Shown: positions 9,001-18,000, counted from the first letter of the stretch. The stretch: DNA of 64,000 nucleotides from Escherichia coli (GCF_003334355.1 NZ_QOWP01000024.1); one strand, 5' to 3'. A program made the numbers.

Positions 9001-12000
9001 CTGGCGTTTGTGGCGACAATTGTTGGTTATGGGATCTGGGGGACGTTACTGGGACGCTATGAAACCTGGCGGGTTGCACCGTTATCGTTACTGGTGCCCG
9101 TAGTCGGACTGGCAAGTGCGGCACTATTGTTGGATGAACGCTTAACGGGTCTGCAATTTTTAGGTGCGGTGCTCATTATGACCGGGCTGTATATCAATGT
9201 ATTTGGCTTGCGGTGGCGTAAAGCGGTAAAGGTTAGAGGCTAAACCATACGCACAGAATGTGATGTCAGCACTCTGTGCGTCTGCTTTTATCGCGGGAAA
9301 AAGTACTTTACCTGGAACTCGATAATATTGCTGTAAAGTAACGAATAATCCAGCGGAATAGAGTTACTGTCCACAGCCTGGGTCTGAATTTTAAGTATGG
9401 GATCCCGTGGGCTGATCCGTAAAATACTGGCGATTTCTGGGGTAGGAAAAGTAGGGGAGAAAGTTTCATAGGTGCCAATGATTTTGATCCCGCATTCGTT
9501 CTCAATATACGAAAATTTGGATTTTTGCATATGTGATACGGTTAAATCAGGAAAACGTGCCACTGACATCCACGTTTCTTCTAATTGTGCCGCATTATCC
9601 TCAATGAATCGCAGTCTCTTTATGTAATAAACCTGCTCACCGGGCACTAAATTCAGCTCAGTTGCAATAGTGGGTGAAGCATCCTGCACTTCAAATTTCA
9701 TAATCTGACTCCCTGCCTCTTTGCCGCTTTTATGCGCAATTTCACTGAAGCTGTTCATGTGATCAATGTGTGCAACAAAATTCTTTTTTTGAATGTATGT
9801 TCCTGAACCATGCTTTCTGTGAATAATTCCTTCGCCTTCCAGCAAGGATAATGCCTTACGCAGGGTATTACGCGAAACATTATAACGAACTGCGAGTTCA
9901 GCTTCTGACGGCAACAAATCACCAACGTGCCATGAATAGCCATTGATCTCAGATTTAAGTAAGCGGGCAATCTTTTGAAAAATCACTTTTGCACCTTTTA
10001 AGAGCCATTGAAAACAAGGAGTTGAGTCCTGATTGGTTTATCGTATGGCCGAGTCGTTTAATTATTACCCTGATGTTGAACAACTTTATTACTGTATTAC
10101 TGTGATCAATGTACCAGGATGTATAGCTACTGCGGGATATGATATTTACACAATGTAGTCTGTTATATACCAGTAAGGGAAAATATGAAAAAGATATTGT
10201 TAGTTTGCGCTGCGGGCATGTCAACCAGTATGCTGGTTAAACGTATGATTGATCATGCTAACGCTATTTCACTTGAAGTTAATATTTCCGCATTGGCGAT
10301 TGCAGAGGCTAAAGGAAAAATTAAAAATAACGAAGTTGACGTTGTTTTACTTGGCCCGCAAGTTCGCTTTCAGAAACCGGAGATTGAAGCCGTTGCACAG
10401 GGGAAAATGCCTGTAGCCGTTATCGAGATGAAAGACTACGGCACCATGAACGGACAGGCAGTTCTTGAATTTGCGATGAAACTACTGCAACAGTAAGAAT
10501 CTAATATTATTAAACTATTACCTGAACTAATTTTTCACACATCATAAAATGGATATGGCATACATGCTTTATTGGGATGTATAAATATCCAAAACAACAG
10601 GTATAAAAAAATGGGATTAATGGCCTCATTCGAACGTGGAATGGAACGTTTTCTTGTTCCAGTTGCTATCAAGTTAAACTCACAAAAACATGTTGCAGCG
10701 GTGAGAGATGGATTCGTTTTTACGTTTCCAATTATCATGGCAAGTTCATTAATTATATTAATTAACTTTGCCATATTATCGCCAGACGGTTTTATTGCCG
10801 GATTACTGCATCTGAATAGCATTTTCCCCAACCTTGAAAAAGCACAAGCTATTTTTACTCCGGTAATGAATGGTTCTGTAAATATCATGTCAATTATGAT
10901 TGCTTTCCTGGTCGCCAGGAATATGGCGATTAGCTATGAGCAAGATGATCTTTTATGCGGATTAACGGCAATAGGAGCATTTTTTATTGTTTATACGCCA
11001 TATCAGATGATAGATGGGCAAGCATTCCTGACGACCAAATATCTCGGCGCGCAGGGGTTGTTTGTTGCTGTTATCGTTGCATTGATCACCAGTGAAATAT
11101 TTTGTCGCTTAGCTCGAAACCCAAAAATCACCATAACGATGCCGGCAGCTGTACCGCCTGCGGTAGCGCGTTCATTTAAAGTTTTATTGCCAATATTTTT
11201 TGCCATGGTGTTCTTTTCCGCACTTAATTATTGCCTGACACTGATATCCCGGCAGGACTAAACGATCTTATTTACACATTAATCCAGACGCCGCTCAAAC
11301 ATATGGGAACGAATATCTTTGCGGTAATTATCCTGGGGGCTGTGGGTAATTTCCTGTGGGTGCTGGGGATCCACGGACCTAATACCACATCGGCAATTCG
11401 AGAAACCGTTTTTTCTGAGGCTAATCTGGAGAATCTCTCCTGGGCCGCTCAACATGGCACTACCTGGGGCGCGCCATATCCGATTACCTGGACTTCTATT
11501 AATGATGCATTCGCCAACTGCGGCGGTTCAGGTATGACGTTGGGGTTATTGTTGGCTATTTTTATCGCTTCTAAGCGTGCGGAATACCGTGATCTGGCAA
11601 AAATGTCATTTATCCCCGGTATTTTCAATATCAATGAACCGATAATGTTTGGCCTTCCTATTGTACTTAACCCCATCATGATGGTGCCGTTTATTATGGT
11701 TCCCATTGTTAACTGTGCCATTGGTTACTTCTTTGTTTCGATGGAAATTATTCCACCGGTTGCTTATGCCGTGCCCTGGACTACGCCCGGACCTTTAATT
11801 GCTTTCCTCGGAACCGGGGGGAACTGGCTGGCTTTACTGGTTGGTTTTTTATGTTTAGGTGTGGCGACAATGATCTATTTACCTTTTGTTATTGCCGCCA
11901 ACAAAGTCAATAACATGACAACTAACGGATAATTCCATTTACCCAGGAAGGAGATTGTGATGTTTGCAGATGAAGAACTTGTTATGGAGTTACTGGTCAA

Positions 12001-15000: not shown

Positions 15001-18000
15001 TAACCCGCAACTGGATTATGTTGAACCACGAGATTTGGTCAGCAACCCTTATATCGATACATCCGAATGGGGATGGCAAATTGATCCGGCAGGGCTACGT
15101 TATTCACTCAACTGGTTGTGGGATCATTTCCAGTTGCCGCTGTTTATTGTCGAAAATGGATTTGGTGCGGTTGACCAGAGACAAGCTGACGGCACAGTGA
15201 ACGATCACTATCGCATTGATTACTTTGCTTCCCATATTCGTGAAATGAAAAAAGCCGTAGTCGAAGATGGTGTTGACTTAATTGGCTACACCCCGTGGGG
15301 CTGCATTGACCTGGTTTCTGCCGGAACAGGGGAAATGAAAAAACGCTACGGAATGATTTATGTCGATAAAGACAACGAAGGGAAGGGAACGCTGGAAAGG
15401 ATACGTAAAGCGTCGTTTTACTGGTATCGGGATCTCATCGCCAACAATGGCGAAAATATTTGAGACTTCAGAAAGATATTACGGAGATGTCAGGCTCTGT
15501 GATCAGAGCCTGACAATAACTACATAGCGTGTTGATTATAATAGGGCACGCCGAGCGCATCCGACTTATCACTGCCAGTACCCATGTGATTTAAATCAAA
15601 CGGCGGTTGTTCCTGCGATGGAGGAGCAACCACCACATTGCCACAGGAAGTAACAACCGGCTGCGTGGGTTGTTCCGCAACGCCCTGCGCGGAAAAGAGA
15701 ATAAGCGCAGCTGCTATTGCGGATAAAAGTGGTTTCATGATTGCCTCAGTGACGTTGTCACGTTATCAACTAGCTGTTGTAATGATTTAATGGATGTAAA
15801 AAGCGCGATTCGCCCTGCATATTGGTCATCCGGTATTTATGCGGCGGAACATCAAAGTAATTTTTGAAGGTTCGGGTCAGAGTTTGTTGCGACTCGAAGC
15901 CATATCGTTCTGCCAGATAGAGTATCGGCTCGTTACTTTCCTTCAGCTTTTGCGCGATTTCCGTCATCTTACGGCTGCGGATGTATTGGCCTAATGAATG
16001 ACCGGTTTCTTTTTTAAACATCCGTTGCAGGTGCCATTTGGAGTAACCCGAACGCTCTGACACTTTCTCCAGTGACAGTGGCGATTCCAGGTTGTCCTCG
16101 ATCCAGTCCAAAATGCTATGAATGGTAATAGCGTCAGTATTGCGTCTGGACATCGTCATACCTCTTTTTTGTTTACGGCAGGACTTTCTTAAGCAAATGC
16201 TCAAGTGTTGCCACTTCGTCCGCCGTCAGGTTTTTTGTTAATTCTTGATGCAGGTCCTGGCCAACTAATTGATGGCATTGTTCGCATATTGCCGCGCCGC
16301 TGGTGGTAAGTTTTACCAGTACGCCGCGCTTATCATTCGGGTTCGGCAACCGTTCAACCCAGCCTTTACAGACCAGGCGATCCAGCATACGGGTCAGTGC
16401 TCCCAGGTCGACCGACAACACTTTTTTCAGTTCAACCGGAGTAATACACGCCGCGCAGCGGATAGAGCAGAGCACCTTAAACTGTGCCGCAGTAATATCC
16501 AGCGGAGACAGATACTCGTTAAGCAGACGATCTTTCTTCTGATTAACCATATGGATTAAGCGACCCAATGGAATAATTTCATTGAACAGATCGCTGGTAC
16601 TTTTCACATTAGTTGCCCTGGCAAGTAATTAGTTGCAGGGGATAATATTGCCCAGGCAAGTATAAGTCAAATGAATGAATGACCGATGCCACGTTTTGCT
16701 AAATCGGTTCAAGTTTTGGTCAATGCGATGCAAGGTTAGCTAAAGAGTGACACTTTATCCTTGTTTACCCCTTATACTTTTCGCTGATAACCCAGATACA
16801 CAGGATAACAACCACCAATGTTAGATTTGTTTAAAGCAATTGGCCTGGGGCTGGTGGTGTTACTGCCGTTAGCTAACCCATTAACAACTGTCGCGTTATT
16901 TCTTGGCCTGGCAGGCAACATGAACAGTGCCGAACGTAATCGTCAGTCGTTGATGGCCTCGGTGTACGTATTTGCCATCATGATGGTGGCGTATTACGCC
17001 GGGCAACTGGTGATGGATACATTTGGCATTTCGATTCCCGGTCTGCGAATTGCAGGCGGCTTAATCGTCGCGTTTATCGGTTTTCGGATGCTCTTTCCGC
17101 AACAGAAAGCGATTGATTCACCGGAGGCGAAAAGCAAGTCGGAAGAGCTGGAAGATGAACCCAGTGCCCATATTGCCTTTGTGCCGCTAGCAATGCCAAG
17201 TACCGCTGGTCCGGGAACCATAGCGATGATTATTAGCTCGGCGTCCACAGTGCGTCAGAGTTCAACCTTCGCTGATTGGGTACTGATGGTTGCGCCGCCG
17301 CTGATCTTTTTCCTGGTGGCGGTTATTTTGTGGGGAAGCCTACGCAGCTCCGGCGCAATTATGCGGCTGGTGGGCAAGGGTGGCATTGAAGCGATCTCCC
17401 GTCTGATGGGATTCCTGCTGGTATGTATGGGTGTGCAGTTTATTATTAACGGCATCCTGGAAATCATTAAAACGTACCATTAAAAAAGGCCCGAATGGGC
17501 CTTTCAACTATTGCGTCTGTTCTTCGAGTGTCACTGGCCAGCGGCGAAATATAATGATTGACCATATTAACGCGGCAAAAGCAGGCACCGCGCCCACATA
17601 ACCAATCATCGACATTGACCAGTGCAAACTCACCTGATTACCTACCAACGCACCCGCCCCGATTCCAATATTAAATATGCCGGAGAATAGCGCCATCGCG
17701 ACGTCGGTAGCATCTGGTGCCAGCGCCAGCACTTTAACCTGCATACCAAGCCCGATGATCATCATCGCGATCCCCCAGAAAATACTCAGCACCCCGAGGT
17801 GTATTTCACTGTTCGCCGCAGGTAGCAGCAGTGCCAGACACACCAGCAACAGCGCAATTGCCGTACTCACCAACGCAGACGCATACTGATTACCCAGTTT
17901 ACCGAAAATCACGCTGCCAATAATGCCCGCACCACCGAGTAATAACAGTAATGCCGTGGCAAAGTTGGCGCTGAATCCCGCAATGTTTTGCACAAAAGGC

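Follow-up and report, generated by a model that had tools for sequence, protein, structure and literature searches.

We analyze a 64,000-nucleotide stretch of Escherichia coli DNA (GCF_003334355.1, NZ_QOWP01000024.1; hereafter "the window", in whose coordinates all positions are given) that carries an AT-rich sugar-uptake gene block between eamA and marB. The block is very probably the chromosomal bgc locus, made up of the regulator gene bgcR and the divergent operon bgcEFIHA, which appears to be an ancient resident of the chromosome and to have been inactivated in this strain. The locus itself is already known; what we add are two strain-level pseudogenes and a population-level and evolutionary description. 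Gene content, protein families, frameshifts, distribution, synteny with Escherichia albertii and the signal of selection come from our own comparisons, and the substrates, the crypticity and the activation by BgcR are taken from the literature. The features of the block are the following, with the proteins of the phosphotransferase system (PTS) named as enzymes IIA, IIB and IIC:

9288-9986, minus strand: GntR/HutC regulator with a UTRA effector domain, 232 residues, intact, corresponding to bgcR (best match NF007292, GntR family)
9987-10184, no strand assigned: divergent regulatory region between regulator and operon, with a CRP-like site and a candidate -10 hexamer
10185-10496, plus strand: PTS enzyme IIB of the lactose/cellobiose family, 103 residues, intact, N-terminal Cys8 (bgcE; 44% identity to ChbB)
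10611-11932, plus strand: PTS enzyme IIC (bgcF), a pseudogene here through a 1-bp deletion; the intact protein has 440 residues
11960-12271, plus strand: PTS enzyme IIA of the lactose/cellobiose family, 103 residues, intact, HAQDHLM histidine motif (bgcI; 48% identity to ChbA)
12275-12302, plus strand: internal hairpin between the IIA and porin genes, with an 11-bp stem and a T-rich tail
12327-13999, plus strand: LamB-family porin with an N-terminal Sugarporin_N coiled coil (bgcH), a pseudogene here through a 1-bp deletion
14024-15463, plus strand: GH1 6-phospho-beta-glucosidase, 479 residues, intact (bgcA; NF007154)

The arrangement of these genes is what ties the block to bgc. Downstream of the regulatory region the genes encode, in order, IIB, IIC, IIA, a porin and a phospho-beta-glucosidase, which is the five-gene order of the bgc operon, and the adjoining GntR-type regulator gene (9288-9986) lies divergently on the minus strand. 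The block shares with bgc its AT-richness, its lack of mobility genes, and its presence in uropathogenic/B2 strains such as CFT073 together with its absence from K-12. CFT073 carries the six genes intact between marB and eamA; in a comparative study, its six genes c1955-c1960 are listed as a "PTS system, cellobiose specific" and as absent from both K-12 and O157:H7 (PMC2831201). According to two further papers, BgcR is a GntR-type positive regulator of the five-gene bgc operon, which is cryptic and serves cellobiose, arbutin and salicin (PMC3585215), and the cryptic beta-glucoside operons of E. coli are chb, asc, bgl and bgc (PMC4488073). The sequence-only reading of this DNA had called the substrate unknown, which no longer holds once the gene set is recognized, in the light of these papers, as that of bgc; the substrate class it predicted, a beta-glucoside or beta-linked disaccharide, agrees with the published substrates.

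The protein families point the same way. The intact IIC allele scores 331.7 bits against TIGR00410, the lactose/cellobiose IIC model (cut-off 236), and together with a separate IIB bearing Cys8 and a separate IIA bearing HAQDHLM it places the system in the PTS lactose/cellobiose family (TC 4.A.3). The hydrolase reaches 1035.9 bits against NF007154 (cut-off 624) and carries a TFNEIN acid/base motif at residue 175, an IVENG nucleophile motif at 377 and a phosphate-binding motif at 432. GH1 enzymes of this kind use two catalytic glutamates and bind the substrate phosphate through Ser, Lys and Tyr residues, so that the model, the glutamates and the phosphate-binding motif together identify a GH1 6-phospho-beta-glucosidase. 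Its closest solved relatives are 3PN8/4F66, 8YSV and 3QOM, followed by E. coli BglA (2XHY). For the porin, the intact CFT073 allele matches LamB (PF02264) at residues 147-557 with an E-value of 5.5e-80, along with Sugarporin_N (PF11471); a search against PDB chains returned no sequence match at E<=1e-3. Among K-12 paralogues, identities are 44% to ChbB, 37% to ChbC, 48% to ChbA, 52% to BglH, 60% to BglA, 50% to BglB and 48% to AscB.

What sets the window copy apart from the published operon is that bgcF and bgcH each carry a 1-bp deletion, which makes this a decayed allele. We found the two frameshifts by aligning the window to two near-identical complete genomes. In the IIC gene, a CCCC run at about 11245-11248 is reduced to CCC (deletion at about 11247), and the shifted frame meets a stop at 11259-11261, leaving 212 native residues followed by SRQD, against 440 in the intact protein. 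In the porin gene, GG becomes G at about 13725 and translation stops after residue 466 of 557, at the cost of the last 91 residues with their C-terminal beta-strands and terminal aromatics; the window porin thus lacks the complete LamB barrel with its C-terminal aromatic residue and belongs to the family by descent only. Judged from the reading frames, the permease and the porin are broken in the window and the regulator, IIB, IIA and the hydrolase are intact. With both IIC and the porin truncated, the uptake system would be broken in this copy. The earlier description of a HutC/GntR regulator, three PTS proteins, a porin and a GH1 enzyme was right about the families; it overlooked the two broken frames, with which the operon would not work for uptake here.

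Both deletions recur in other genomes. An exact copy of the porin allele occurs in 71 of the 5,426 complete genomes, one being that of the commensal E. coli HS, and PGAP labels the porin "frameshifted" in strain 81EVA; its occurrence in 71 genomes argues that it is a real, inherited lineage marker. The IIC allele is present exactly in a single complete genome of the 5,426, that of strain PSS-12, where PGAP likewise calls a frameshift. The window lacks an IS5 element that PSS-12 carries near ydeE, and the two differ besides by three single-nucleotide polymorphisms and a 4-bp indel. (The IS5 insertion site in PSS-12 corresponds to about position 6960 of the window, between mgtS and ydeE.) The presence of IS5 in one and not the other indicates distinct isolates of one small clade, so the IIC deletion has been seen twice independently and is probably real. 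Such double inactivation is the exception among carriers of the block: when 10 carrier genomes were sampled at even steps, eight had all six genes intact, one had the porin frameshift and one had a GH1 protein 13 residues shorter. In the urinary isolate EC24, the GH1 protein is annotated with 466 residues rather than the usual 479 (13 codons shorter), another independent lesion.

We take the bgc locus to be the same as c1955-c1960. The operon goes back to Neelakanta, Sankar and Schnetz (2009, Appl Environ Microbiol 75:2284), who reportedly named its porin BgcH, found it to be CRP-dependent, traced bgc* mutants to a point mutation in the promoter, and noted the locus in E. albertii as well, a finding that the present analysis confirms independently. 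We thus treat the window block as a presumptive copy of the published locus on the strength of its gene content and order, the CFT073 locus and these reported features.

Several points weigh against this identification and against the inactivation that goes with it. The assignment to bgc is one of gene content, order and locus, and the names "Bgc" are absent among the exact-sequence protein clusters, which carry only generic PGAP and UniRef names. The title of the 2009 paper stresses prevalence in septicemic and uropathogenic strains; here 46% of complete genomes have the block, the commensal HS and O111:H8 Shiga toxin-producing E. coli among them, which is broader than that title and still compatible with it. 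Finally, the IIC frameshift affects a short run of C and recurs in one other assembly only, which leaves some room for sequencing error. One could accordingly suppose that errors of sequencing or assembly produced one or both frameshifts and that the operon is actually intact and potentially functional. Each is indeed a single-base deletion in a short run (CCCC to CCC, GG to G), and the IIC allele is found in just one of the 5,426 complete genomes. We nevertheless regard such an error as improbable: the porin allele is common to 71 independently assembled genomes including HS, the IIC allele recurs in the separate assembly of PSS-12, which stands apart by its IS5, three polymorphisms and 4-bp indel, and runs of two to four bases are not typical error hot-spots.

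We next consider the setting of the block, whose flanks and boundary structures are:

8344-9243, plus strand: eamA, O-acetylserine/cysteine exporter, left core flank (open reading frame and annotation)
9246-9284, no strand assigned: left boundary hairpin between the convergent eamA and regulator genes, with a 9-bp core stem (9249-9257/9273-9281)
15488-15515, no strand assigned: right boundary hairpin between the convergent GH1 and marB genes, with a 12-bp stem and a 4-nucleotide loop
15520-15738, minus strand: marB, right core flank (open reading frame and annotation)

The eamA stop at 9243 and the marB stop at 15520 (minus strand) are separated by 6,276 bp in the window and by only 30 bp in K-12 BW2952, in line with the sequence-only reading, which had placed about 6.2 kb between two genes that are neighbors in K-12. 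That the block is richer in AT than its surroundings also holds: its GC content is 42.6%, against 47.3% for the remaining window, and the GC content at third codon positions (GC3) is 0.37-0.47 for the block genes, 0.53-0.59 for ydeE, eamA, marA, marR, marC and ydeA, and 0.47 for marB. Measured against equal-sized windows, block GC is about 1.5 standard deviations under the mean. The AT-richest stretch of the window lies elsewhere, at about 51100-57700 (40.3% GC, below the block), and by collinearity with 81EVA it contains ydeM, ydeN, ydeO, safA and ydeP.

The hairpins that had been said to bound the block are both far more stable than shuffled controls. Folding free energies are -17.4 kcal/mol on the plus strand and -23.3 on the minus strand for the left hairpin (z-scores -2.7 and -4.2), and -23.3 and -22.3 kcal/mol for the right one (-4.9 and -5.0). 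The left hairpin is kept in CFT073 and in strain 12089 and is probably a bidirectional terminator; the right one is conserved in E. albertii. We considered whether the hairpins mark the ends of a transferable cassette and rejected the idea, since the corresponding cassettes in Citrobacter and in Salmonella enterica subsp. diarizonae end in unrelated hairpins, which makes those of the block ordinary local terminators. An 8-bp repeat, GATGTCAG, found in the loop of the left hairpin and just before the right hairpin, was likewise discarded as microhomology for an indel, because deletion between its copies yields neither of the empty junctions that are observed.

Nothing at the block identifies it as a mobile island or integrative element, for which an integrase or transposase, a tRNA or att-type target and flanking direct repeats would be expected. 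The PGAP annotation of the near-identical strain 81EVA shows no integrase or transposase there, in a repeat search direct repeats flanking the block were limited to short matches at chance level, the tRNA scan found none at the block, and the Rfam and PHROG scans returned no relevant match at it. Annotation and repeat search thus agree with the earlier statement that integrase, transposase and obvious direct repeats are missing.

Of the 5,426 complete E. coli genomes, 2,496 (~46%) carry the entire block and 2,449 have an empty junction of the K-12 type. A second empty junction, typified by O157:H7, is found in 384 genomes and differs from the K-12 type at about 12% of positions; the hairpin at this junction shows compensating changes (GCCCCGATATGCCGGGGC versus GCCCCGAGATGTCGGGGC). 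The pangenome and junction comparisons therefore bear out the claim that the block is strain-variable and missing from K-12. The position of the eamA stop codon is identical in carriers and in both empty types, which confines the indel to the interval between the two stop codons. A breakpoint inside eamA, which the different C-termini of its product might have suggested (KVGS in K-12, KVRG with the block), was rejected: the O157-type empty allele retains both KVRG and the stop position, and the K-12 differences are thus point substitutions. Plasmid-borne copies were also rejected. Four E. coli "plasmid" records contain the block; two are chromosome-sized and two carry or abut chromosomal flanks, and the one of the four that we inspected runs ydeE-eamA ... 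marBAR-marC and is a mislabelled chromosome fragment. A fifth plasmid match is a weak match to an Enterococcus GH1 gene.

Outside E. coli, a search with the porin against species-representative genomes recovered the same six-gene order in three other taxa: E. albertii, Citrobacter sp. On2M and S. enterica subsp. diarizonae. In E. albertii, the block is directly followed by marB, marA and marR, with the same hairpin. The Citrobacter cassette is at an unrelated locus, adjoining tktB (transketolase) with aegA about 1.8 kb past its other end, and the S. diarizonae cassette is at another, with nfsB about 0.4 kb away. Rearranged forms are present in Kluyvera, Raoultella, Klebsiella, Enterobacter, Cedecea, Buttiauxella, Ewingella and Erwinia. 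Divergence of the block follows that of its surroundings: between the window and CFT073, identity is 95.8-98.2% for block genes and 96.3-98.7% for flanks, and between the window and E. albertii it is 80-84% and 82-91%. Comparing CFT073 with E. albertii, the ratio of nonsynonymous to synonymous substitution rates (dN/dS) lies at 0.02-0.09 in each of the five operon genes, with dS at 0.8-1.7 for the block and 0.5-1.0 for the flanks.

The shared E. albertii junction and hairpin, the flank-like divergence, the low dN/dS and the mostly intact carriers argue for long residence. Going by these comparisons, the block would be an old, AT-rich Escherichia resident kept under purifying selection in about half of strains rather than a recent import. 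Given such residence, we infer that its absence from K-12 more likely reflects a loss or an old empty allele. The sequence-only reading had proposed a metabolic islet rather than a mobile element; the lack of mobility signs and the variability among strains fit this, whereas the recent gain that it implied runs against the evidence for long residence. A recently acquired islet, transferred horizontally into the lineage and inserted between eamA and marB, would account for the low GC and GC3 relative to the flanks, for the absence of the block from K-12 and O157:H7, and for the fact that Citrobacter sp. On2M and S. enterica subsp. diarizonae have the same cassette elsewhere, at loci unrelated to this one, which does indicate that the cassette moved between genera at some time. 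We hold it to be highly improbable here, because divergence between phylogroups and from E. albertii parallels that of the flanks, E. albertii has the same junction and hairpin, dS in the block is no lower than in the flanks, mobility genes, tRNA and repeats are lacking, and the supposed plasmid copies are mislabelled chromosome fragments.

Long residence invites a bolder suggestion, which we offer as rather doubtful: presence or absence of bgc at the eamA-marB junction may be an ancient polymorphism that selection has possibly maintained and that predates much of the diversification of E. coli. It is suggested by the occurrence of an intact operon under purifying selection in both E. coli and E. 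albertii, alongside two deeply diverged empty haplotypes. If true, private decay of the kind seen in the window would mark lineages in which beta-glucoside use stopped paying, and the locus would offer a clean natural setting in which to study what "cryptic" catabolic operons cost and what they bring.

The regulatory region between bgcR and the operon hints at how expression might be controlled. In an intergenic alignment of 13 sequences from at least 10 genera, a CRP-like site, TGTGATCAATGTACCA, lies at 10101-10116, and its TGTGA half (10101-10105) is invariant, a sequence-level hint of CRP dependence; conserved GTTCA and TGAAC elements lie upstream of TGTGA. A candidate -10 hexamer, TATGAT, occupies 10138-10143, with no good -35. 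We infer that the CRP-like site is centered near -41, in a class II-like placement, which, together with the poor -35, would fit an activator-dependent promoter. Where the operon is intact, the BgcH porin would admit beta-glucosides across the outer membrane, and the lactose/cellobiose-family PTS would import and phosphorylate them (IIA to IIB to IIC). BgcA would then split the 6-phospho-beta-glucoside into glucose-6-phosphate and glucose or an aglycone. Transcription would start from a weak promoter dependent on BgcR, the GntR-type activator, and probably also on CRP acting at the conserved TGTGA site. The internal hairpin at 12275-12302 could be an attenuator or an RNA-stabilizing element; by partly terminating or stabilizing the transcript, it may uncouple expression of the PTS from that of the porin and hydrolase.

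For annotation, the locus should be recorded as bgcR-bgcEFIHA, with bgcF and bgcH as pseudogenes in this strain. Because these two genes are broken, we predict that this operon cannot give rise in the strain to Bgc+ mutants, which at 28 °C grow on salicin, arbutin or cellobiose. The presence of the block in about 46% of genomes, the strong purifying selection on it, the occupied site in E. albertii and the two diverged empty alleles may also serve the study of how cryptic, H-NS-type AT-rich catabolic operons are retained and lost. Beyond annotation the significance is small, as the analysis extends published work and opens no new question.

Two observations elsewhere in the window concern strain differences of other kinds. 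In the marR-marC intergenic region (marO), at 16670-16680, the window and 81EVA have one T fewer than K-12, CFT073, O157 and 12089 (AATGAATGAATTGACC becoming AATGAATGAA-TGACC), and PSS-12 is missing five bases at the same spot. Because this indel sits between the mar-box region and the marRAB -35 hexamer, strains could vary in the spacing of their activator site. Farther along, at 45088-45645, the window has 558 bp where the otherwise collinear 81EVA has about 8.8 kb. The 81EVA segment, in the ydeT fimbrial region, carries a TnAs1-family transposase, a recombinase, a PAS-domain chemoreceptor and fragments of a fimbrial usher and chaperone.

Set beside the related sugar systems of E. coli, the block combines features that are otherwise found apart. 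It shares with chbBCARFG of K-12 the lactose/cellobiose PTS family, with separate IIB, IIC and IIA proteins (44%, 37% and 48% identical), and both systems are cryptic for cellobiose. The chb operon, in contrast, has an AraC-type regulator (ChbR), a GH4 hydrolase (ChbF), a deacetylase (ChbG) and no porin, and the block, with a GntR regulator, a GH1 enzyme and a porin, does not have the ChbR, ChbF and ChbG members that define chb. That the block is a PTS for chitobiose, lactose or another non-glucoside, such as a second chb-like operon, is barely credible: ChbB, ChbC and ChbA are the closest K-12 paralogues of its IIB, IIC and IIA (37-48%) and NCBIfam chitobiose models do score, but all chitobiose equivalog scores fall far under the cut-off (IIC 275.8 versus 760), the hydrolase is a GH1 enzyme of the BglA type by its NF007154 score (1035.9 versus 624) and not a GH4 ChbF, neither a ChbG deacetylase nor an AraC-type ChbR is encoded, the porin is 52% identical to BglH, and the published substrates are cellobiose, arbutin and salicin (PMC3585215).

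The porin resembles ScrY/LamB porins with an N-terminal coiled coil in combining LamB (PF02264) with Sugarporin_N (PF11471); it differs from them in having no match to solved porin chains (E<=1e-3) and, in the window copy, in lacking the last 91 residues. The hydrolase belongs to the same GH1 family as BglA, AscB and the solved structures 3PN8/4F66, 8YSV, 3QOM and 2XHY, and keeps their catalytic and phosphate-binding motifs, yet it falls in a separate orthologue group (NF007154/PRK09589), scoring about 803 bits against 3PN8/4F66 and 683 bits against BglA (2XHY). The bglGFBH operon of K-12 likewise contains a LamB-type porin, BglH (52% identity), and a GH1 enzyme, BglB (50%), and bgl, too, is a cryptic, AT-rich operon that E. 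coli strains retain variably (PMC2646131). Uptake and control differ between the two: bgl uses a glucose-family enzyme II with fused B, C and A domains (BglF) and the antiterminator BglG, whereas the block encodes a three-protein cellobiose-family PTS and a DNA-binding activator of the GntR type. As far as its protein families tell, the system is a hybrid in kind, joining a chb-type PTS to a bgl-type porin and hydrolase under a GntR regulator.

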